A stretch of 48,601 nt of DNA from a virus, in the IMG/VR virus record IMGVR_UViG_3300037511_000156, positions 1 to 48,601 of that record; one strand, given 5' to 3'. Positions 1-48,601 of the stretch are shown here, piece after piece; within the stretch, counting starts at the first letter, position 1, and each line of letters starts with the position of its first letter. Made by a program: the position numbers and the translations under genes. A model generated the notes under the pieces. That model was not told the DNA's origin. It saw nothing but the letters and a program-made list of their open reading frames with translations, and made no database searches.

Positions 1-127
1 TGATTGGCCATGTACTCTTCGTCGTTCGCCAGGGTTGGGTTATCCATGATTGTAGCCGGCAGATAGAACCACCGGGCCGGTAGCGTGCCCTTTGACCACG
101 GATCGTAAACGCGTTTCTTCGGCCACA
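1..127. repeat. Terminal direct repeat, copy 1 (identical to 48475..48601); most likely the assembly overlap of a circular contig
   Basis: Bases 1-127 (tgattggccatgtactc...cttcggccaca) recur exactly at 48475-48601. A single reading frame runs through the junction. Confidence 0.95.
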
Positions 128-686
128 ACAGAGTAGGGTTTACGTTGGCCATGATGATCGGCTTCGGCATCGGGTTGATGCCCTGCGCTTCCTGTTCAGG
201 TGTGGGCTCGATCTTCCAGCGGCCAGCGCGTGTAAAGCATACATCAAGCAAACCTTCCTGCAGCTCTTCAATCTGCTCGAGCAAGAAACCGTTTACCTCC
301 AACCCTTTAAACCGGTCAAAGTTCTTGTCTTGGTTGTAGTTCTCGGCCATGAATATGATCCGGGAGCCGTTCGTAAACTCGGCAATGTGGTCCTGCTGGT
401 TGAAATTGGCCAGGAAGTTAGTAGGCACGATCCGTTTGAAAGTCTCGAGTGTAGTGCTTTTTAAAGTCGGGATAGAATCTCGGATGATCACCCATTTCGA
501 CCCGGGGTAGAACTTACAGAGCATGATAGCCGCCGCAATGCAGACGTATGACTTTCCGCCGCCCATCGCCCCGCCGTAACAAAGAAAGGTGTATTTGCCC
601 GAAAAGACCGCCTCTATAAACTCTTGTTGCTTCGGGTAAGCGCTAAATAGGACTTTCGTCTTAGAACTTGAGCTCTTGTCCGCCAA
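1..686 (-). CDS. terL: Terminase large subunit, N-terminal part (continues from 47799..48601 across the circular junction)
   Basis: The minus-strand frame is open from the window edge up to a TTG at 686, with an in-frame TAG just upstream at about 720-722. It encodes ...SGKYTFLCYGGAMGGGKSYVC (Walker A) ...NVNPTLLWPKKRVYDPWSKGTLPARWFYLPATIMDNPTLAN. That sequence is contiguous with the 47799..48521 ORF. Joined length is about 454 aa. Confidence 0.85.
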   Translation of the reverse strand, partial: MADKSSSSKTKVLFSAYPKQQEFIEAVFSGKYTFLCYGGAMGGGKSYVCIAAAIMLCKFYPGSKWVIIRDSIPTLKSTTLETFKRIVPTNFLANFNQQDHIAEFTNGSRIIFMAENYNQDKNFDRFKGLEVNGFLLEQIEELQEGLLDVCFTRAGRWKIEPTPEQEAQGINPMPKPIIMANVNPTLLWPKKRVYDPWSKGTLPARWFYLPATIMDNPTLANDEEYMAN

Positions 687-2853: not shown

Positions 2854-3156
2854 CTATTCCCAGCCTTCGGCTATAGCCAGGGCTTTAGCAATTTCATCGT
2901 CTGATAGGAGCTTACATTTTTGTAGTACCTGTATTGTCAAAAAGCGTTCTTCATCATCGATATCGGAACTGGCTGTGTTGTTCAGAGCATCATCGAGGCA
3001 GCTGTCAACAAGATCTAAATTCCAGTCATCAAAAACCACGTGCGCGTAACCAAACGCGGGATTAATTTCACGTAATCCATTTATCATTTCCGATACTTCG
3101 GTGATGACTGTCGTAACAGGGACATCATTATAATCTGCTCTACAATTTTGACACAT
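2854..3156 (-). CDS. Hypothetical acidic protein
   Basis: 100-aa ORF. It overlaps the upstream HNH ORF end by 17 nt. Confidence 0.55.
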   Translation of the reverse strand: MCQNCRADYNDVPVTTVITEVSEMINGLREINPAFGYAHVVFDDWNLDLVDSCLDDALNNTASSDIDDEERFLTIQVLQKCKLLSDDEIAKALAIAEGWE

Positions 3157-3454
3157 GGCCTAGTTTTTTATTATGAATATCCTGTAAAAACTCCCTTTTG
3201 TCGGCTATATCGCCGTATTCGATGTGGTGCTCCCGGCACAAGGCCATCAAATTCTCGATCACGTCCTTACCCTGTATTCCGCCCATCTTCCTACTGTGTA
3301 TGTGGTGTATGTCCACCGCTCGCGCGCCGCAGATCTCGCAGGGGATGAAATCGGATACGTCATATCCGAAATGCTGCATGTAAATGCGTGTGTGTGCTTT
3401 CAAGAGGTCCGTTTGGGGCTCGAACCCAAATACAGCCGCTGACGCAGCTTGCAT
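3140..3454 (-). CDS. HNH endonuclease (true start probably Met26 at 3379)
   Basis: CEICGARAVDIHHIHSRKMGG...ENLMALCREHH is an HNH motif. The first 25 codons of the listed ORF overlap a tRNA-like structure, so the 3379 start (MQHFGYDV...) is preferred. Confidence 0.8.
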   Translation of the reverse strand: MQAASAAVFGFEPQTDLLKAHTRIYMQHFGYDVSDFIPCEICGARAVDIHHIHSRKMGGIQGKDVIENLMALCREHHIEYGDIADKREFLQDIHNKKLGHVSKL

Positions 3455-3474
3455 GCCACTCTGCCACCGGACCT
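3405..3474 (-). ncRNA. Deviant tRNA-like element A (canonical acceptor, D and T arms; abnormal anticodon arm)
   Basis: Minus strand: AGGTCCG/CGGACCT is a 7-bp acceptor. It is followed by a 3-bp D stem, GCA-GAGTGGCA-TGC, whose loop contains GG. The T arm is TTGGG-TTCGAGC-CCCAA. The anticodon position holds AGCTGC-GTCA-GCGGCT (6 bp plus a tetraloop) instead of 5 bp plus 7 nt. Confidence 0.55.
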
Positions 3475-3523
3475 ACCAATCAATCCAAACTAAATAAGCA
3501 AACTCCCGAAACGTATTATTTAA

Positions 3524-3573
3524 ACGACAGCCGGCAGGTCCAAAACTGTTTTAATCGTTTAACCGGCTGCCGT
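3524..3573 (-). terminator. 11-bp stem, long-loop hairpin after the secreted-protein gene
   Basis: Minus strand ACGGCAGCCGG (3573-3563) pairs with CCGGCTGTCGT (3534-3524). The one G.U pair would be a C.A mismatch on the plus strand. An A/T-rich tract, TTAAATAAT, follows. Confidence 0.45.
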
Positions 3574-3581
3574 TATGACTT

Positions 3582-3932
3582 TTATTCCAAAAATACTTTT
3601 ATGACTCTGCCGTTTATATAGAAAGGCCCTCCGTCTGGCTGCGTTCCGAGGCCGCAAACCTGGTATTGGTCAAGGCATATGTTATCACCGCAGAAATAAC
3701 TACTTCGAGTAGCCCAATCGCTACAGCCCTGAACAAGCATAGGCGAAACTTCAGTGCCATTTTTAAGATCGATGTATTCCGGAGAAAATTCCCGGCCGGC
3801 ATGTTCGTATCTGGCTATTGCCTTTTGTAACCCTGACTCACTTAGTGTCTGCGAGCCTTCGGAAGAACTTTGCGCCTGCGCGCCTACCACAACAAACAAC
3901 CCCACAACGAGAGTTAAAATTAACGTTTTCAC
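3582..3932 (-). CDS. Secreted small protein (signal peptide, 4 Cys)
   Basis: GTG start. The N-terminus is MKTLILTLVVGLFVVVGAQA followed by polar residues. The mature part contains four cysteines. Confidence 0.65.
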   Translation of the reverse strand: MKTLILTLVVGLFVVVGAQAQSSSEGSQTLSESGLQKAIARYEHAGREFSPEYIDLKNGTEVSPMLVQGCSDWATRSSYFCGDNICLDQYQVCGLGTQPDGGPFYINGRVIKVFLE

Positions 3933-3981
3933 GATATTTCAGGCTACTTGTATTCCGCTGCCCGGCGGGTTATGGTTTAAA

Positions 3982-4128
3982 GATGCGAGGCAGGATTCAA
4001 TACCTGCACGCCGTCTATAGTTGGAAAAGGCTTTGATATTGGAGTTCCACATCTCCTGGGGCGGCGTCACTCTGCGGCTAGGCCTGTCTTACTTCTCCAA
4101 CTTTGCGTCTTATTCCGCCACTCGCATC
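3982..4128 (-). ncRNA. tRNA-like module E1 (147 nt)
   Basis: Minus strand, in order:
- 8-bp acceptor GATGCGAG/CTCGCATC, followed by U;
- D arm GCG-GAATAAGA-CGC, resembling a class II tRNA D arm;
- 9-bp helix TTGGAGAAG/CTTTTCCAA with one G.U, capping a 62-nt insert;
- T-like hairpin GCAGG-TATTGAAT-CCTGC. Confidence 0.65.
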
Positions 4129-4140
4129 TTATATCTTAAA

Positions 4141-4293
4141 GGCGCACGGCAGGATTCGATACCTGCATTATTTTTTCAGGTTTTAAGGCCTGGGGTAAAT
4201 AGAACCTTGCCTATTTATTGCTCTATACCACCCCCGGTACCTCTCCGGGTATTTTCGAAAACGGTGGTTGCCTCCTAATCGGCCACGTGCGCC
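4141..4293 (-). ncRNA. tRNA-like module E2 (153 nt), paralog of E1
   Basis: Minus strand, in order:
- 8-bp acceptor GGCGCACG/CGTGCGCC, followed by U;
- D arm GCC-GATTAGGA-GGC;
- helix ACCACC/GGTGGT;
- hairpins CCCGG-AGAGGTA-CCGGG and TAAATAG-GCAAGGTT-CTATTTA;
- T-like hairpin GCAGG-TATCGAAT-CCTGC.
Four acceptor pairs and one D-stem pair covary with E1. Confidence 0.65.
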
Positions 4294-4872
4294 ATTAATT
4301 TCAAATAAAAGGGCGCCTAACGTGTGGCCCATGCGGCATATCCAGGCATTCTAAGCGCTATTTCGGTACCTGTATTTGCTATCCCCGTAGTGCTTTTAGT
4401 TTCAAATTAACCCCCTGACAATCGCCAGGGGGTAAGCTTTCTTGTAAAGCGGACATCAGGTTCTTCGTATAGCCCCTGCAACACTTCCCGATCTCTTATG
4501 AGGTCCACCGGGTAGACCTCGCCGCTGCTTAGTATAGAGTGAACGCGCCCTCACTCACCCTTGCGCTCTGTAAATTGCCTTCGGTATCCAAGGGTATAGA
4601 GTTAAACCTGCCGGCATTCAGAAACCCGTCTTTCCGGTTGTCAACTACAGCCAATCTGTAGCACCTTCGCCTAACTTTATTTACCGGTAGCGCCACTCGG
4701 TATGCACTTAGTTACGTCACAAATGCACGAAATACGCCCTACGCTAACCCGGCAGGTATGGGGATGTTTCACATCTTTGCCATCTCTAACGCTCAGGCCG
4801 CGTTTCTCTGTCTTTCCAGAGTGTCGGCCTATCGGACTTAACGCGTACACGTTTAACCGTCTGGCATGGTCG
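4294..4872 (-). ncRNA. Central ORF-poor, hairpin-dense domain of the structured-RNA locus
   Basis: Many stems are perfect or contain G.U only on the minus strand. Examples:
- AGGCCG..CTCTG-GAAAGA-CAGAG..CGGCCT (about 4793-4830)
- GATGT-GAA-ACATC
- CTACAG-ATTGG-CTGTAG
- GAGTGA-GGGCGCGT-TCACTC (4537-4556)
- GAGGTC-TACCCGGTG-GACCTC (4500-4520)
- CCCCCTG-GCGATTGT-CAGGGGG (4411-4432)
There is also long-range AGGGCGC (4545-4551) / GCGCCCT (4310-4316) complementarity. Confidence 0.45.
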
Positions 4873-4949
4873 TGGAGATCCAGGGAATTGAACCCCGGCG
4901 GGAATTCGCTTTGCGGATTGCGAGGCAAAAACCTTTAACCTTAATCCCC
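4873..4949 (-). ncRNA. tRNA-like module D (77 nt) with a G3.U70 acceptor stem
   Basis: Minus strand, in order:
- acceptor GGGGATT/GATCTCC with G3.U70 and discriminator A;
- no D stem (AAGGTTAAAGGTT is unpaired);
- TTTGC-CTCGCAATCC-GCAAA (10-nt loop);
- GCG-AATTCC-CGC;
- T arm CGGGG-TTCAATT-CCCTG.
The sequence CGACCA follows the discriminator. Confidence 0.6.
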
Positions 4950-4953
4950 ATGT

Positions 4954-4980
4954 GCCCCGGCTATGTTCAGTAACCGGGGC
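4954..4980 (-). ncRNA. 7-bp GC hairpin immediately 5' of module D (part of the structured locus)
   Basis: GCCCCGG (4954-4960) pairs with CCGGGGC (4974-4980), with a 13-nt loop. Further stems with 15-16 nt loops lie at 5002-5028 (AAGCTA/TAGCTT) and 5033-5060 (CCGGAG/CTCCGG). A stem with a 6-nt loop lies at 5101-5116 (GGCCG/CGGCC). Confidence 0.45.
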
Positions 4981-5128
4981 GAACCTTTACATACTACAAG
5001 AAAGCTAGAACCGCCTGTCCTTTAGCTTAGCGCCGGAGAAGACCCTACATCAAACTCCGGCTGTAGCCGTTTATCGATGGCAAAACGCCGCATGCTTAAT
5101 GGCCGCGCGGACGGCCGGAACCCTACTA

Positions 5129-5275
5129 CTAAGATTCTATAAACTTTACGCCGTCTATTTCGACAGCGCTCAGTTTGCCTTCACGGATGAGTTTATAAAC
5201 CCACTCGCGACTCTTCTTTATCTTGTAACTGTAATTCGCAACAGTTAGCAAATTCTTTGTTTCTACCCTTGCCAT
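5129..5275 (-). CDS. Small HTH DNA-binding protein (excisionase/AlpA/MerR-like), 48 aa; below the ORF-track cutoff
   Basis: Manual translation: MARVETKNLLTVANYSYKIKKSREWVYKLIREGKLSAVEIDGVKFIES*. The pattern is typical of Xis-type winged HTH proteins. It is the first gene of the leftward unit. Confidence 0.55.
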   Translation of the reverse strand: MARVETKNLLTVANYSYKIKKSREWVYKLIREGKLSAVEIDGVKFIES

Positions 5276-5455
5276 TTACATGTGCTTTGCGTTTTTTGTT
5301 TCGCGTTAAAGTGATACAAACATAGTCCACAGATTCACACTATGCAAGTGATTCCCAAAAAATATTTTTTAGAATTTATTTTTCAAATATTTTTCAGTCA
5401 GGTATTGACAAGTTCACAGTTATGTATTTACTTTGTTTCATCAACAAAACGAAAT
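5276..5455. promoter_or_regulatory. Divergent AT-rich control region between the leftward and rightward units
   Basis: 180 nt without a credible ORF. TTGACA lies at 5405-5410, followed by TATTTACTTTG at 5425-5435, about 20 nt before the ATG at 5456. T/A runs lie at 5355-5400. Confidence 0.35.
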
Positions 5456-5677
5456 ATGAAAAGAATCAGCACACCTTCGCAAATGAAACCAAAATCAGAA
5501 GGCGAAATTTCACAATTCAAAAAAGTATCACCAGAAGGCAAGATTAGCCAGTACAGTGTGTACCTGCTGGACGGCCAATTCCATTTAGTTCACGGTTTGA
5601 TTTTTCATGTTCGGCAGAACCACACAGTAGCAAAGTCTAATAAAAGTTTCGCGGCAATAGCAAAGGCAATAATCTAA
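5456..5677 (+). CDS. Hypothetical early protein (internal start of the listed 5342..5677 ORF)
   Basis: Met39 starts MKRISTPSQMKPK... The upstream 38 codons are F/I-rich translated promoter-like AT sequence. Confidence 0.55.
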   Translation: MKRISTPSQMKPKSEGEISQFKKVSPEGKISQYSVYLLDGQFHLVHGLIFHVRQNHTVAKSNKSFAAIAKAII

Positions 5678-5682
5678 AAAAC

Positions 5683-5958
5683 ATGAAAACAACATTTGAA
5701 ACAGCACACGGCACGCGCGGGACACAAGCGAAAGAGTTCATGACCTTCTTTGATGACCGCGAGCAGGAGTGTATCGCCATAGTAACATGGGAATATGTGA
5801 CCGGCGCCGAAACCATCGTTACCTCGATAAAAATCAACCCGATCTGCTGGTATCGCATGCTGGAAGCCTCTTTAATAGAGGATGCTTACAACTTCATACG
5901 CGGTCAGTACACACGCGTTTCTTTCGAGACTAAAGGCCAAGTAACCGTAACCAAATAA
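5683..5958 (+). CDS. Hypothetical protein
   Basis: 91-aa ORF, 5 nt after the preceding stop. Confidence 0.6.
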   Translation: MKTTFETAHGTRGTQAKEFMTFFDDREQECIAIVTWEYVTGAETIVTSIKINPICWYRMLEASLIEDAYNFIRGQYTRVSFETKGQVTVTK

Positions 5959-5978
5959 CGCCAGCCGGGAAAGTACCG

Positions 5979-6197
5979 GTGAATGATATGAAACTAAAAC
6001 TTGAGGTATGGTATAGAGGTCAATGGATTGAAGTGTCCGAAGACCAATATCTATCTGCCATTAATAATGGCAAGGAAGGCAGAGGAATGAAAGAAGGCAT
6101 AGAAATAGGCCGTAATTACGGCGCATTTAAAGATAAGACGCCTGAACGCGACGACATAGCCGAAATGCCTCACGGAGATCCTTACAATAGACGGTAG
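5979..6197 (+). CDS. Hypothetical protein
   Basis: 72-aa ORF (GTG at 5979, or ATG at 5988). Confidence 0.55.
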   Translation: MNDMKLKLEVWYRGQWIEVSEDQYLSAINNGKEGRGMKEGIEIGRNYGAFKDKTPERDDIAEMPHGDPYNRR

Positions 6198-6220
6198 AAC
6201 AACAACTGACGAGGCTTTAA
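6197..6220 (+). repeat. Intergenic repeat, copy 1: GAACAACAACTGACGAGGCTTTAA
   Basis: Begins at the TAG stop and ends 8 nt before the ATG at 6229. Near-identical to 6528-6548. Confidence 0.7.
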
Positions 6221-6228
6221 TAACAAAT

Positions 6229-6528
6229 ATGACTCAAATAGATTACGATGCAATGGCCGAAATACTGTCTGAGAACGGTATTACGGCTACAGATGAGAAA
6301 ATCAAAGACATTACTGACCAGTTTATTAACCATAGGCAGTGTTTGTCTGATATGGAATCCGAGCAATTCCGTGGTTCTTTTTCTGAATGTGAATCTTGCA
6401 AAAACTTGAAAGAGCAGATAAAGGATTTACAACATGATCATGATATATACAAGCAATTTGCTAGTAAGAAAGCTGGCGACAGGCCCGTTTTCATACGGGA
6501 TGGTGAGATAATGTTTATCAAGCGATAG
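6229..6528 (+). CDS. Hypothetical protein
   Basis: 99-aa acidic ORF. Confidence 0.6.
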   Translation: MTQIDYDAMAEILSENGITATDEKIKDITDQFINHRQCLSDMESEQFRGSFSECESCKNLKEQIKDLQHDHDIYKQFASKKAGDRPVFIRDGEIMFIKR

Positions 6529-6548
6529 AACAAACTGACGAGGCTTAA
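6528..6548 (+). repeat. Intergenic repeat, copy 2: GAACAAACTGACGAGGCTTAA
   Basis: Same placement as copy 1: it starts in the TAG stop and ends 5 nt before the ATG at 6554. Confidence 0.7.
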
Positions 6549-6553
6549 ATAGC

Positions 6554-6886
6554 ATGAATACACCAAAACCCGACTACATAACGCCAGGCGCTAAGGTAGT
6601 CATGGCGATAGGCGCCAGCAATCGCATATCTGATGCGGGCAAACTTAAAGCCTTGGATGCCATCACAGATATGGTTAAAACCGACTGCATCGACAATAAC
6701 TTTCACGTTAAGGAGGCGGGAACATATAATGGCCTGGAGGTATACGACCAATCTATGCCAGCAGGCTATATATTAGTCGGCATGTTCTGGTTTGATGAGT
6801 CGGAGCTTGGTAAACACTTTTGGTGGCGAATTTACGATTACTTAACTAAAGACTATCAATTTAACAGTAACCCTCACGCTGGATGA
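6554..6886 (+). CDS. Hypothetical protein
   Basis: 110-aa ORF. Confidence 0.6.
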   Translation: MNTPKPDYITPGAKVVMAIGASNRISDAGKLKALDAITDMVKTDCIDNNFHVKEAGTYNGLEVYDQSMPAGYILVGMFWFDESELGKHFWWRIYDYLTKDYQFNSNPHAG

Positions 6887-7781: not shown

Positions 7782-7981
7782 ACATAACATGTTTCAATGC
7801 ACCATCTGCTAGAGTAGAGATCTTACGTGGGAATAAAGCCGGTGTACGCGGATCTATAGAAGGTATTGAGTATGACCGTGAAGGTAGGATAAAGTTCTGG
7901 CTAGTGAGTCCTGATAATAATGGGCCTCGTATAGCCGTTAAGTTCGGAAACACAAAAAGGATTTGGGGGCGAAAACCATGA
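7778..7981 (+). CDS. Hypothetical protein
   Basis: 67-aa ORF with overlapping start and stop. Confidence 0.55.
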   Translation: MNITCFNAPSARVEILRGNKAGVRGSIEGIEYDREGRIKFWLVSPDNNGPRIAVKFGNTKRIWGRKP

Positions 7982-8226
7982 TACCCAAGCTTACCGACTT
8001 CTCTAAAGAGGAATTGAATTGGATAAGAAGGCTTGCAGAACTAGAATGTGCCGTACTGGATGAATTCTGCGGCAACTACGAGGCGGGCGAATACCTGAAA
8101 GTTGGATCAGCACGAGAAGCTTATTCCCAAAAGAGTCTAAATCGTGATTATGCACATCAATGGCTTACCAAGCTAACCGAAGCCATCCAGGAAGTAGAGC
8201 GAAACGAACGAATACAATCAAATTAA
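7978..8226 (+). CDS. Hypothetical protein (ATG at 7978 preferred over the listed 7963 start)
   Basis: ATGA overlap with the upstream stop. Begins MIPKLTDFSKEELNWIRRLAELE... Confidence 0.55.
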   Translation: MIPKLTDFSKEELNWIRRLAELECAVLDEFCGNYEAGEYLKVGSAREAYSQKSLNRDYAHQWLTKLTEAIQEVERNERIQSN

Positions 8227-8228
8227 TC

Positions 8229-8429
8229 ATGGACAAACTTACACAGCAAAAAAGAACGTATTTTGAAATGCAGAAAATGGCAAATATGGATGTAATATTT
8301 GCCGTAAGAACTGATTCGGCTCGTGCATATCTTCGTGATATGATTGCTGCGGCTACACATTTGCCATCAAAAATGGTACAAGAGTTTAATGAAGAGGCTG
8401 TTTTAAACTGTTCTCAAAACCCTTACTAA
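8229..8429 (+). CDS. Hypothetical protein (ATG at 8229 preferred over the listed 8160 start)
   Basis: MDKLTQQKRTYFEMQKM... starts 2 nt after the preceding stop. Confidence 0.5.
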   Translation: MDKLTQQKRTYFEMQKMANMDVIFAVRTDSARAYLRDMIAAATHLPSKMVQEFNEEAVLNCSQNPY

Positions 8430-8437
8430 GCAGTATA

Positions 8438-9352
8438 ATGAGCGAAAACCAATTAACAGTAAAGAATCTATTCGGCCGAGATGAAGTCCGGAACAAGTTT
8501 CAGGAGATGCTCGGCAAGCGCGCCCCGTCATTCATTACGTCGGTCTTGCAGATCGTAGCCTCAAACCAACTATTGGCAAATGCTGAACCAAACAGTATAT
8601 ACCATTCTGCAGCTGTGGCTGCTACGCTTGACCTCCCGCTGAATAACGCCCTCGGATTCGCTTATATAGTGCCTTATAATCAAAAGGATGACAAGGGAGT
8701 TTATCGCCAAGTGGCGCAGTTCCAAATAGGTTACAAGGGGCTAAAACAACTCGCGCTACGGAGCGGGCAATTCAAGATCATGAACGCTACAGATGTGCGT
8801 CAGGGCGAGATTGTTAAGCATGATCGCCTTACCGGAGAGATGCAATTCAAGTGGATTGAAGACGAAAACGAGCGCGATAAGCTGCCGATCATTGGCTTTG
8901 TAAGCTACTTTGAATTGCTGAATGGCTATACTCAGACGTTCTACATGACCGTCAAGAAAATCGAAAAGCATGCAAAGCGATTCAGTAAGACTTATCAGAA
9001 AGGATTCGGCCTATGGAAAGATGATTTCGAATCGATGGCCATGAAGACTGTTACAAAACTTAATCTCGGCAAGAATGCACCCCTGTCAATTGAAATGCAG
9101 AAGGCTATAATATTCGATCAGTCAGTAGTTAAGGACGCCGGAACAGCCGATGTTACTTACGTTGACAACGTGGATGAGGCCGCAGAACAGCTACCCGAAA
9201 ATCCAGAATCATCAAGGTTGTTTGATCTGATCGAAGCGGCTGAGACGGTGGAGGAGCTTGAAGGATACGGTAAGTATCTACAGCAAGATCATTTAGACGC
9301 ATACACGGTAAAGTTGGACGAACTTAAAGCCGCGAAGGATGCCAAAAAATGA
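8438..9352 (+). CDS. recT: RecT-family single-strand annealing protein
   Basis: 304 aa. Contains ...LGFAYIVPYN...QFQIGYKGLKQLALRSGQF..., typical of RecT. Paired with a downstream exonuclease. Confidence 0.8.
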   Translation: MSENQLTVKNLFGRDEVRNKFQEMLGKRAPSFITSVLQIVASNQLLANAEPNSIYHSAAVAATLDLPLNNALGFAYIVPYNQKDDKGVYRQVAQFQIGYKGLKQLALRSGQFKIMNATDVRQGEIVKHDRLTGEMQFKWIEDENERDKLPIIGFVSYFELLNGYTQTFYMTVKKIEKHAKRFSKTYQKGFGLWKDDFESMAMKTVTKLNLGKNAPLSIEMQKAIIFDQSVVKDAGTADVTYVDNVDEAAEQLPENPESSRLFDLIEAAETVEELEGYGKYLQQDHLDAYTVKLDELKAAKDAKK

Positions 9353-47798: not shown

Positions 47799-48601
47799 CT
47801 ATTGCCGCGCGTACTTTTTCGGATTGGTGATGAATTCTTCGTAGAAAGTGCCTAAAAGGTACCGGAATGTATCGCCGTGGTGCTGGCCTTTGTCTTTGGT
47901 CTTGATAAGGTCTCCAAATTCATCTACCTGCGCGCTGACGATATCCGCAATGGTTTTCTCGCAGTTCTCGGTGATCGTAAATTCAGCGTGTTGCAACACA
48001 GAGTTGCACAATACCCGGGAATCTGTGATATGTAGATTTTGCTTTCTGACCAGTATCGCCCGATCGTGAAGCCGTAGCTTTTCCTGAATAACTCGATAAT
48101 GATTCAAATTGCCGCGTGTAAGGGCATTTCGGTTTCGACCCGTGGCATCGCCGGTTATCTGAATATTACCGGTCCAACGCGGATATTTCGCTGCCACAAC
48201 CTCGCAGACTTCCTCAGAAGATCCGTTATTGATTTCGATCTCGTCGAACGCTGCAGCGCGCCATAAATCCAACTGCTGCCCGATCAGAGCGGTCATAGGC
48301 TCTTTATTAAAGTCGAAAGAGACGGTAATCGGCAGGTGAGGATTCGGCACATAGCTATCCTTCGGACGGACGTGTTTGGCATATCCGAATGAGTAGAAGA
48401 ACGGATTTTCAACCGCAAACGCCGTCCAGTCGCCCAGGATGTTGCGCTTGTACGTTAGTTCCTCGAGCATGGATTGATTGGCCATGTACTCTTCGTCGTT
48501 CGCCAGGGTTGGGTTATCCATGATTGTAGCCGGCAGATAGAACCACCGGGCCGGTAGCGTGCCCTTTGACCACGGATCGTAAACGCGTTTCTTCGGCCAC
48601 A
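47799..48601 (-). CDS. terL: Terminase large subunit, C-terminal (nuclease) part; continues from 128..686 across the junction
   Basis: The frame is open to the window end. ...WPKKRVYDPWSKGTLPARWFYLPATIMDNPTLANDEEY... is contiguous with the N-terminal fragment. The Met at 48521 listed in the ORF track is internal. Confidence 0.85.
   Translation of the reverse strand, partial: WPKKRVYDPWSKGTLPARWFYLPATIMDNPTLANDEEYMANQSMLEELTYKRNILGDWTAFAVENPFFYSFGYAKHVRPKDSYVPNPHLPITVSFDFNKEPMTALIGQQLDLWRAAAFDEIEINNGSSEEVCEVVAAKYPRWTGNIQITGDATGRNRNALTRGNLNHYRVIQEKLRLHDRAILVRKQNLHITDSRVLCNSVLQHAEFTITENCEKTIADIVSAQVDEFGDLIKTKDKGQHHGDTFRYLLGTFYEEFITNPKKYARQ
48475..48601. repeat. Terminal direct repeat, copy 2 (identical to 1..127)
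   Basis: Exact 127-nt identity with the window start. Confidence 0.95.

Follow-up and report, generated by a model that had tools for sequence, protein, structure and literature searches.

What occupies about 1.15 kb of a phage genome if not protein-coding genes? The stretch of DNA that raises this question, referred to as the window in the following, comprises the 48,601 nucleotides (nt) of the IMG/VR record IMGVR_UViG_3300037511_000156. It is a phage genome, which encodes a small terminase subunit (661–1134), RecT (8438–9352), an exonuclease and an HNH endonuclease. On its minus strand, between a gene for a protein of 48 amino acids (aa) with a putative helix-turn-helix (HTH) motif and one for a 116-aa secreted protein (3582–3932), lies a locus that a first-pass annotation had described as free of open reading frames (ORFs), dense in hairpins and equipped with three tRNA-shaped modules, termed D, E2 and E1. 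This annotation had considered two possibilities, namely a large, ornate non-coding RNA or an array of tRNA mimics.

In the following, we describe why the stretch consists of several small RNA genes in a row instead of one giant RNA, and how two of them, E1 and E2, lead to a large and apparently undescribed family of phage RNAs, in which the tRNA body is retained and a variable insert replaces the anticodon arm. The premise of an ORF-free locus was borne out: positions 3933–5341 form the window's longest stretch without an ORF of at least 90 aa, the longest ORF between the two flanking genes has 88 aa, and a Pfam search with the short overlapping ORFs yielded no match. Likewise, the coordinates of the three modules and the spacing of 579 nt between D and E2 were confirmed (Table 1).

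E1 and E2 are members of an anticodon-less tRNA-like family

E1 and E2 share one layout, which reads AUGCGAG-UG-GCG-GAAUAAGA-CGC ... U-GCAGG-UAUUGAAU-CCUGC-CUCGCAU in E1 and GCGCACG-UG-GCC-GAUUAGGA-GGC ... U-GCAGG-UAUCGAAU-CCUGC-CGUGCGC in E2. Both possess a 7-bp closing stem, followed by U8-R9 and a 3-bp D stem with A14, as well as U48 and a 5-bp T stem with a UAUCRAAY loop, which directly abuts the 3' strand of the acceptor stem. Repeat detection in the window identifies the two as paralogues, and when each is folded alone, the minimum free energy (MFE) structure reproduces the acceptor, D and T helices. In E1, an 11-bp helix stands where the anticodon arm would be. In E2, the third D-stem pair is flipped from G-C to C-G, and position 15 is a U. 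We also considered the inserts of both modules as antisense sequences to the phage's own genes, a candidate function that was rejected: complementary matches of 13 nt or more do not occur, and those of 11–12 nt occur at chance level.

The T-arm word shared by E1 and E2 has exact matches in 85 IMG/VR contigs. Nearly all of these matches are preceded, 60–240 nt upstream, by a 7-nt complement of their 3' flank, followed by U-G and the D arm GGCGGAAG(A)UAGACGC. When the D arm alone served as the anchor, 78 contigs were returned, of which about 65 had not been found before. In all, the family comprises 100 distinct members or more, and the feature statistics given below were obtained from 101. From 36 IMG/VR sequences, with no window sequence included, we built a covariance model, R1, which recovers E1 with 54.2 bits (E 4e-11 to 4e-13) and E2 with 48.5 bits (E 1e-11, filters off). 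Between positions 3300 and 5300, it finds nothing else above 7 bits; module D, a conserved 244-nt block and a further tRNA-like element at 3404–3473, all of which are described below, each score less than 7 bits.

These matches lie on the minus strand alone, as expected from the earlier strand assignment. The argument that had been made for it, based on wobble pairs, also stood: G.U pairs are found in the acceptor stem of D (G3.U70 and U7.G66), in its T stem and in the 11-bp helix of E1. On the plus strand, these positions would read as C.A mismatches, in support of the minus strand as the functional one.

The proposed helices are supported by covariation throughout the family. In the 36 sequences used for R1, the acceptor stem is 98% paired and shows double changes in six of its seven pairs. 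In 56 further matches aligned to the model, pairing is seen in 98.7% of the cells, and double changes occur in 13 of 15 pairs; the covariation score is 0.79, whereas shuffles reach 0.20 and slid controls about 0.1. The T stem covaries in the set of sequences that was anchored on the D arm. Two classes of 3' hairpin can be distinguished, both with covarying stems. Class A has a 5-bp stem with a UAUCRAAY loop, whereas class B (L128–L193 in IMG/VR; 19 of 101 members) combines the same D arm with a 7-bp stem and a UGNRAGY loop, which matches the general T-loop consensus. A third variant of this hairpin, with an 11-nt loop, is seen in the E2 counterpart of a sister phage.

Hallmarks of the tRNA core are the pairing of U8 with A14, the Levitt pair between positions 15 and 48, and an acceptor stem of 7 bp. 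Within the family, 96 of 101 members have A14 and 99 of 101 have A15, and U48, which immediately precedes the T stem, is found in 98 of 99; the selection of sequences demanded none of these three, whereas it did demand U8, found in all 101. The closing stem stops at 7–8 bp, position −1 is a U in 57% of the members and position 73 an A in 43%. Directly after the stem, an NCCA is encoded in 10 of 101 members, where about 1.6 would be expected (roughly 1e-5 by a Poisson estimate). The members are 68–246 nt long, with a median of 124 nt (n = 101), and inserts of 25–200 nt, which are unrelated in sequence, stand in the place of the anticodon arm.

The family is found in phages and within tRNA arrays

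Hardly any members are found outside phage sequence. Among species-representative genomes of bacteria and archaea (596 Gb), the T-arm word has just 15 matches, distributed across many phyla and located for the most part on contigs of metagenome-assembled genomes. The coliphage phAPEC8 carries a 77-nt member between the genes for tRNA-Asn and tRNA-Thr, inside a tRNA cluster, which scores 49.6 bits with R1. This copy recurs with 95–100% identity in 88 cultured phage records, which belong to the phAPEC8 group of coliphages, and is annotated in none of the 40 that were listed; 5,426 complete E. coli genomes contain no match to it.

A position within 300 nt of a real tRNA gene is seen for 16 of 101 members, on the same strand every time. 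We also observed arrays of two to four copies, some of them interleaved with real tRNAs (L186 6518–7851, L140 8240–8509, L135, L144, L163 and L166). Genes beside family members are always co-oriented with them, and we found neither a recurrent partner protein nor a preference for sites just 5' of a start codon. About a quarter of the members start at most 11 nt after the upstream stop codon, and a third end at most 60 nt before the next start codon. Cases in which an encoded CCA could be compared between an element and its neighboring tRNAs were too few to correlate.

The locus is a mosaic of independently replaced parts

The architecture of the locus can be judged from a sister phage, represented by the IMG/VR contig L090, whose RecT is 99% identical to that of the window phage and which carries the same locus between homologues of both flanking genes. 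On its minus strand, a leader is followed by tRNA-Val(UAC) and tRNA-Met(CAU), a 244-nt block, about 230 nt of non-coding sequence, an 89-aa ORF, the E2 counterpart E2', a mini-module and the E1 counterpart E1'. The two tRNAs are genuine and occupy the place of module D. E2' shares its acceptor stem with E2, but differs in its interior and has a T loop of 11 nt, and E1' retains the acceptor, D and T parts of E1 around a shorter, unrelated interior. The 89-aa ORF (6507–6776) and the mini-module have no counterpart in the window; of the ORF, window positions 4385–4399 retain just the first 14 nt (UUGAAACUAAAAGC). This remnant, which is a deletion scar, together with a folding z-score of +1.15, identifies the spacer at 4294–4399 as the remains of a gene. 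As parts have been replaced independently in a nearly identical genome, a single co-folding RNA is excluded.

The 244-nt block, the only one of the larger segments to be conserved between the two phages, is 96.7% identical to L090 7016–7258, with sharp borders. A 1-nt indel between the two phages breaks every reading frame of this conserved part, which is thus non-coding, and the pair G4509-C4493 of the window is changed to U-A in L090. The block has a better folding score on the minus strand (z −2.3) than on the plus strand (z −1.5), and it ends in a GC-rich 8-bp hairpin (4410–4433), followed by UUAAUUUGAAA. Words from it, searched in IMG/VR and in metagenomes of the Joint Genome Institute (JGI), were found in the contig of L090 only; with one known relative, covariation is limited to this one compensatory change. 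The block is a candidate for a separate conserved structured RNA, possibly a small RNA or a 3'-end module.

The description of the locus as saturated with hairpins held for some segments only. On the minus strand, stability beyond that of shuffled sequences is found for E1 (z −2.5), E2 (−2.7), 4760–4869 (−3.3) and 4396–4650 (−2.3), and z is −1.8 for 4950–5099 and −0.7 for D. By contrast, 4644–4790 (−0.3) and 4294–4400 (+1.15) are unstructured. The acceptor, D and T parts of E1 and E2 recur in the homologous locus of L090, but the long-range pairing that had been proposed between 4221–4229 and 4593–4601 does not. Shuffles of the region are expected to contain about 2.8 long-range inverted repeats of 9 nt, so that a single one is at chance level, and its partner sequence in E2 is missing from L090, where the interior of E2' is unrelated. 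The observed number of such repeats is nine, a value that 2% of the shuffles reach; the excess is due to the closing stems of E1 and E2 and to one perfect 12-nt inverted repeat (4435–4446/4995–5006). The arms of this repeat are 548 nt apart and join the 244-nt block to the leader (about 0.04 expected by our own estimate). This pairing is not conserved in L090 either, which lacks the leader arm.

The spacer UUUAAGAUAUAA between E2 and E1 occurs three times in L090 (~6193–6204, 6268–6279 and between these), where it parts the modules in the same way. Furthermore, a hairpin followed by UUnnUUUGAAA is repeated at module ends (window 4399–4433 and 4295–4330), and the additional non-coding sequence of L090 (6790–7015) ends in a hairpin of its own and UUUCUUUGAAA. 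The spacer and these hairpin-containing ends could be processing or termination signals.

Module D and the element at 3404–3473

Module D is a degenerate element, which resembles tRNA-Ala. Its acceptor stem contains G3.U70 and is followed by the discriminator A73 and then by CGA in place of CCA; its D arm is weak. ARAGORN does not call D at default settings, but does so at a threshold of 80%, as tRNA-?(Arg|Ala) with the anticodon 'ccgc'. In the anticodon loop, AUCCGCAA, this CCGC is part of 8 nt. Relatives of D were not found, and its exact T-arm word matched ordinary tRNAs alone. According to the identity rules of alanyl-tRNA synthetase, G3.U70 in the acceptor stem marks a tRNA as tRNA-Ala; this acceptor identity and the embedded CGC anticodon point to alanine. 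D is probably a derivative of tRNA-Ala(CGC) with one extra loop base, i.e. a decaying gene. Less likely, the 8-nt loop with CCGC might enable it to read the quadruplet codon GCGG.

A fourth tRNA-like element without an anticodon is located outside the locus, at 3404–3473, just 5' of the HNH endonuclease gene. It is the sole default call of ARAGORN in the whole window ('tRNA-???', anticodon 'tc'), and the Rfam tRNA model gives no match to it. Its D arm is similar to that of tRNA-Ser (UGGCAGAGUGG..), its T arm, UUGGG-UUCGAGC-CCCAA, is canonical, and a 4-nt loop takes the site of the anticodon loop. Judging from the L090 homologue (MKPWTRIYMQHF...), the HNH gene, listed at 3140–3454 on the minus strand, probably starts with a TTG near 3392 and not with the ATG at 3454; with this start, it would not overlap the element.

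Comparison with known RNAs

At gathering thresholds, Rfam 15 returned no family in the whole window. In a permissive search of 3300–5400 (E ≤ 10), the matches were a sub-threshold one to manA, another to the ends of transfer-messenger RNA (tmRNA), and noise; GOLLD, ROOL, HEARO, YrlA and introns were not among them. At 36 member loci, searched at E ≤ 1, no Rfam family was found on the elements, except in L055, which has the most tRNA-like member. In the open-access literature, we found no description of the family; an earlier description elsewhere is possible.

One close resemblance is to class II tRNAs (tRNA-Leu, tRNA-Ser and tRNA-Tyr; RF00005), with which the family shares the 7-bp acceptor stem, U8, R9, A14, the A15-U48 pair and a T stem of 5 bp adjoining the 3' acceptor strand. 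The D-arm consensus of the family, GUGGCGGAAGAUAGACGC, is of the class II type and nearly that of phage tRNA-Leu genes from the same contigs (GUGGUGGAAUUGGUAGACAC), while the D arms of E2 and of 3404–3473 rather resemble tRNA-Tyr and tRNA-Ser. R1 cross-matches a real tRNA of class II length (L166 1536–1618) with about 30 bits, compared to 61.6 bits for the Rfam tRNA model, and family members reside in tRNA arrays on the same strand. By contrast, the family has no anticodon stem-loop and carries its insert at this place, its D loop usually lacks G18G19, and its T loop either has 8 nt (UAUCGAAU) or belongs to the 7-bp/7-nt UGNRAGY hairpin. We took a 5-bp anticodon stem with a 7-nt loop, together with at least 29 bits in Rfam or an ARAGORN call, as defining a tRNA. 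ARAGORN calls just 2 of 101 family members and, at default settings, misses E1, E2 and D; the Rfam tRNA model has no match at gathering in the window and none at E ≤ 10 in 3300–5400, thus missing E1 and E2. The family therefore falls outside the tRNAs, even though its sequence features indicate that it is derived from class II tRNAs.

For about 50 years, stable RNAs resembling tRNAs have been known from phage tRNA clusters, namely RNAC and RNAD (species 1 and 2) of phage T4. These are likewise small stable RNAs of ~120–140 nt, co-oriented with the tRNA cluster in which they lie, and RNAC has a T arm of the tRNA type at its end (CCGGG-UUCGAAU-CCCGG), followed by a short 3' strand. However, R1 has no match in the T4 tRNA region (L109) at E ≤ 10, a D arm of the GUGGCGGAAG type is not visible, and the closing stem of RNAC is imperfect. 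The resemblance is functional or positional only, without detectable homology. The function of both RNAs is still unknown (PMC3014915, PMC9697503).

In tmRNA (RF00023), the ends also pair into an acceptor stem beside a T arm, with non-tRNA sequence in between, and D shares G3.U70 and A73 with tmRNA as well as with tRNA-Ala. The match of D to the tmRNA model, over 4870–4949, scores 21.1 bits (E 5e-6), against a gathering threshold of 47, and covers the acceptor stem and T arm ends only, i.e. the first 9 and last 29 model positions, with 42 nt standing for 328 model positions. Unlike tmRNA, D has neither a tag frame nor pseudoknots and is 80 nt long instead of 300–400 nt, and the tmRNA mode of ARAGORN found nothing. 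The family of E1 and E2 differs from tmRNA in its proper D arm and in position 3:70, where any Watson-Crick pair is found instead of G3.U70.

A weak match connects E1 to manA (RF01745), another phage-associated RNA, which has a closing stem, UG, a D-like hairpin, a long middle part and a T-like hairpin beside the 3' strand. The segment 3980–4140 aligns with the manA model from end to end, at 25.9 bits with a gathering threshold of 55.2, but E2 and the L090 modules E1' and E2' give no match. The T-like loop of manA is longer, and the family has no preference for 5' untranslated regions (UTRs), whereas manA has been proposed to be a 5'-UTR riboswitch (PMC2864571). The order of elements in this riboswitch candidate matches that of the family. 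Possibly, manA itself has a tRNA-like fold, which we mention as a lead only.

Finally, YrlA and other bacterial Y RNAs (RF02553) are non-coding RNAs with a tRNA-like module. Their topology is inverted, with the RNA termini in the Ro-binding stem and not in the acceptor stem. We found no match to YrlA at the family elements and no conserved gene for Rsr/Ro nearby.

Flanking genes and other features of the locus

The features of the locus are compiled in Table 1. The box 41 nt upstream of the HTH gene conforms to TAnnTTTG, which we take to be the Bacteroidota-type −7 promoter consensus, and L090 has TACATTTG at the equivalent position. Given this fit, the box is likely the start of a minus-strand transcript, which would enter the locus from the HTH gene. 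Judged by such boxes alone, the host would belong to the Bacteroidota; the relatives of RecT are scattered across many phyla.

Table 1. Coordinates of the modules, their parts and the surrounding features, in minus-strand order
Feature	Position	Strand	Description	Basis
Candidate promoter box	5317–5324	−	TATGTTTG (TAnnTTTG), 41 nt 5' of HTH start codon	Sequence reading
HTH gene	5129–5275	−	48 aa, upstream boundary of locus	ORF list; weak Pfam HTH_17 match, E 0.006, below cutoff
Leader segment	4950–5128	−	Two hairpins: GCCGGAG...CUCCGGC and 10-bp hairpin 4953–4980 just before D	Folding z −1.8
Module D	4873–4949	−	Degenerate tRNA-Ala-like element	Acceptor GGGGAUU/GAUCUCC with G3.U70
D anticodon loop	4911–4918	−	8 nt, contains CCGC	ARAGORN fold at 80%
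D T arm	4881–4897	−	CGGGG-UUCAAUU-CCCUG, canonical	Sequence
Structured segment	4760–4869	−	Closing stem UGCCA/UGGCA around two hairpins	Folding z −3.3, reached by 1/200 shuffles
Spacer	4644–4759	−	No significant structure	Folding z −0.3 (4644–4790); not conserved in L090
244-nt block	4400–4643	−	Conserved, non-coding, series of hairpins	Comparison with L090
Spacer	4294–4399	−	Unstructured; 5' end UUGAAACUAAAAGC	Folding z; comparison with L090
Module E2	4141–4293	−	Anticodon-less tRNA-like family member	R1
E2 acceptor	4286–4292/4142–4148	−	Eighth pair 4293/4141	MFE fold, R1
E2 D arm	4270–4283	−	Preceded by U8-G9
E2 T arm	4149–4166	−	Preceded by U48; ~100-nt insert between D and T arms
Inter-module spacer	4129–4140	−	UUUAAGAUAUAA (12 nt)	28 nt across spacer 100% identical in L090
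Module E1	3982–4128	−	Same family as E2	R1
E1 acceptor	4121–4127/3983–3989	−	Eighth pair 4128/3982	MFE fold, R1
E1 D arm	4105–4118	−	tRNA-Leu-like, preceded by U8-G9
E1 T arm	3990–4007	−	Preceded by U48
Trailer	3933–3981	−	Hairpin CCGC-CGGGCA-GCGG (3954–3969); adjoins secreted-protein gene	Sequence; conserved in L090
tRNA-like element	3404–3473	−	Fourth, anticodon-less, outside locus	ARAGORN

L090 encodes a homologous 48-aa ORF as the counterpart of the HTH gene, and the leader is weakly similar to the equivalent L090 segment (nhmmer E 6e-4). A search of IMG/VR found no relatives of the 116-aa secreted protein, and an exact-sequence look-up of the HTH protein had one match, a 1.6-kb contig identical to the window. 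This contig (L126; Logan SRR12692973, 1579 bp) is 100% identical to window positions 4404–5982, which shows that the same phage occurs in the public run SRR12692973. It is also the only homologue of the segment 4760–4869 among the fetched loci. A blastn search with the locus against 50,697 phage records yielded no match.

Elsewhere in the window, the second-largest internal stretch without an ORF of at least 90 aa comprises the 656 nt just 5' of RecT (7782–8437). At both ends of the window (1–660 and 48522–48601), next to the gene for the small terminase subunit, no complete ORF is listed. Probably, the genome is complete and circularly permuted, and a gene, perhaps that of the large terminase, is split across its ends.

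A cluster of tRNA-derived RNAs and the alternatives

We consider it most plausible, with a probability of about 0.7, that the locus is a co-oriented minus-strand cluster of separate small-RNA genes, that is, a tRNA island whose tRNAs have been replaced by non-decoding, tRNA-derived RNAs. The cluster would be transcribed from the promoter 5' of the HTH gene, and the tRNA-maturation enzymes of the host would excise the modules, with RNase P cutting at the 5' end and either RNase Z or exonucleases together with the CCA-adding enzyme producing the 3' ends. Such excision is suggested by U−1, by the 7-bp length of the stem and the presence of the T arm, by the overrepresentation of encoded CCA and by the residence of family members in tRNA arrays. 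The products would be stable, L-shaped RNAs acting in trans, which would owe their processing and stability to the tRNA shell, and their specific activity to the variable insert.

Several points weigh against this explanation. The promoter, the cleavage sites and the stability of the modules are all inferred, and what we describe for D and for the 244-nt block is based on one or two sequences each. As family members were collected by exact words from the D or T arm and were required to pair, the percentage of paired positions and the lack of variation in the anchoring arm are partly built in, unlike the double changes and the features outside the anchoring arm. The 7-bp stem of the class B hairpin breaks the canonical 12-bp stack of acceptor and T arm, and the closing stems can be extended to 10 bp in E1 and, with one mismatch, to 13 in E2, unlike in ordinary pre-tRNAs. 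Moreover, the inserts are barely more stable than shuffles (mean z −0.45, compared to −0.16 for control segments, p 0.03), and a folded 'cargo domain' is thus not established across the family.

This marginal stability, and the lack of excess complementarity of the inserts to the phage's own genome, make an exclusively cis-acting role the main rival. The modules would then be tRNA-shaped punctuation marks, which recruit RNase P and RNase Z or protect mRNA ends, the excised RNA having no function and the inserts being neutral filler. We regard this as unlikely overall, but worth serious consideration: conservation is limited to the tRNA shell around hypervariable, weakly structured inserts, many members lie close to a stop or start codon, and their neighbors are always co-oriented, with no conserved partner protein. 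It would not be expected, however, that compact phage genomes maintain 100–200 nt of filler, or that punctuation requires tandem copies and arrays of up to four, as exemplified by E2-E1 in the window. Furthermore, some members lie inside pure tRNA arrays, where there is no mRNA to punctuate, and ordinary tRNAs would suffice for the purpose, which leaves the near-invariant, unusual D and T loops unexplained. A comparably tentative proposal goes beyond the cluster of small-RNA genes and views E1, E2 and their relatives as natural tRNA scaffolds used throughout phages, which would be matured by host enzymes and perhaps even aminoacylated, and in which the exchangeable insert would give each copy a different target; separately, D might be a tRNA-Ala that reads quadruplets. 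The synthetases for tRNAs of the Leu, Ser, Tyr and Ala types ignore the anticodon, and by their sequence features the modules resemble just these types: E1, with A15-U48, is Leu-like, E2 and 3404–3473 are Ser/Tyr-like, and D, with G3.U70 and A73, is Ala-like. The target of the insert would be, for instance, a host defence or translation factor.

The remaining explanations appear far less probable. That E1 and E2 are cis-regulatory, riboswitch-like leaders related to manA, which control the downstream secreted-protein gene, would fit the similar layout and the weak E1 match (E 4e-4), the mere 50 nt between the end of E1 and the next gene, and the status of manA RNAs as phage-associated candidate riboswitches (PMC2864571). 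We nevertheless deem it very doubtful, because the score is far below the manA threshold and absent from E1' and E2', a ligand pocket is hard to square with unrelated interiors in sister phages, and the family includes members between tRNA genes and shows neither a preference for start-codon-proximal sites nor a conserved downstream gene. Slightly less credible still is the notion of decaying tRNA pseudogenes in a hypervariable junkyard of gene remnants. It accounts well for D, with its extra anticodon-loop base, its decayed D arm and the intact tRNAs at its site in L090, as well as for the ORF remnant in 4294–4399 and the two unstructured spacers. For E1 and E2, on the other hand, at least 100 members in phages of many host phyla, with the same non-canonical D and T loops and compensated stems, and the near-identical 77-nt copies in 88 cultured phages indicate purifying selection, not decay. 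Equally remote, and already largely refuted, is the idea that the whole 1.15 kb is one ornate RNA of the GOLLD or ROOL kind, with embedded tRNA-like domains and long-range pairing. The length of the ORF-free stretch, the segments that fold better than shuffles and the perfect 12-nt complement had spoken for it. Yet GOLLD, ROOL, raiA, HEARO and introns had no Rfam match at E ≤ 10, two segments are unstructured, both long-range pairings, of 9 and 12 nt, lack conservation in L090, and in a phage with a 99% identical RecT, parts are swapped, inserted and deleted independently, with a protein gene in the middle of the locus. Of the two initial suggestions, it is thus the array of tRNA mimics that has been substantiated, with E1 and E2 as members of a large anticodon-less family and D as a tRNA-like element whose acceptor stem is of the Ala type and whose T arm is canonical.

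Biological significance

The locus leads to a larger, well-defined family, characterized by strong covariation, a tRNA core, a swappable middle part and hosts across many phyla. For annotation, this family explains 'empty' gaps in phage tRNA islands and merits an Rfam model of its own. As its carriers include cultured coliphages that grow on E. coli K-12, the expression, processing, charging and phenotype of its members are directly testable. If they turned out to be mere processing signals, phages would be using tRNA punctuation similar to that of mitochondria. If, instead, they were true functional decoys or scaffolds, they would represent a new layer of phage-host interaction that is built on the tRNA fold.

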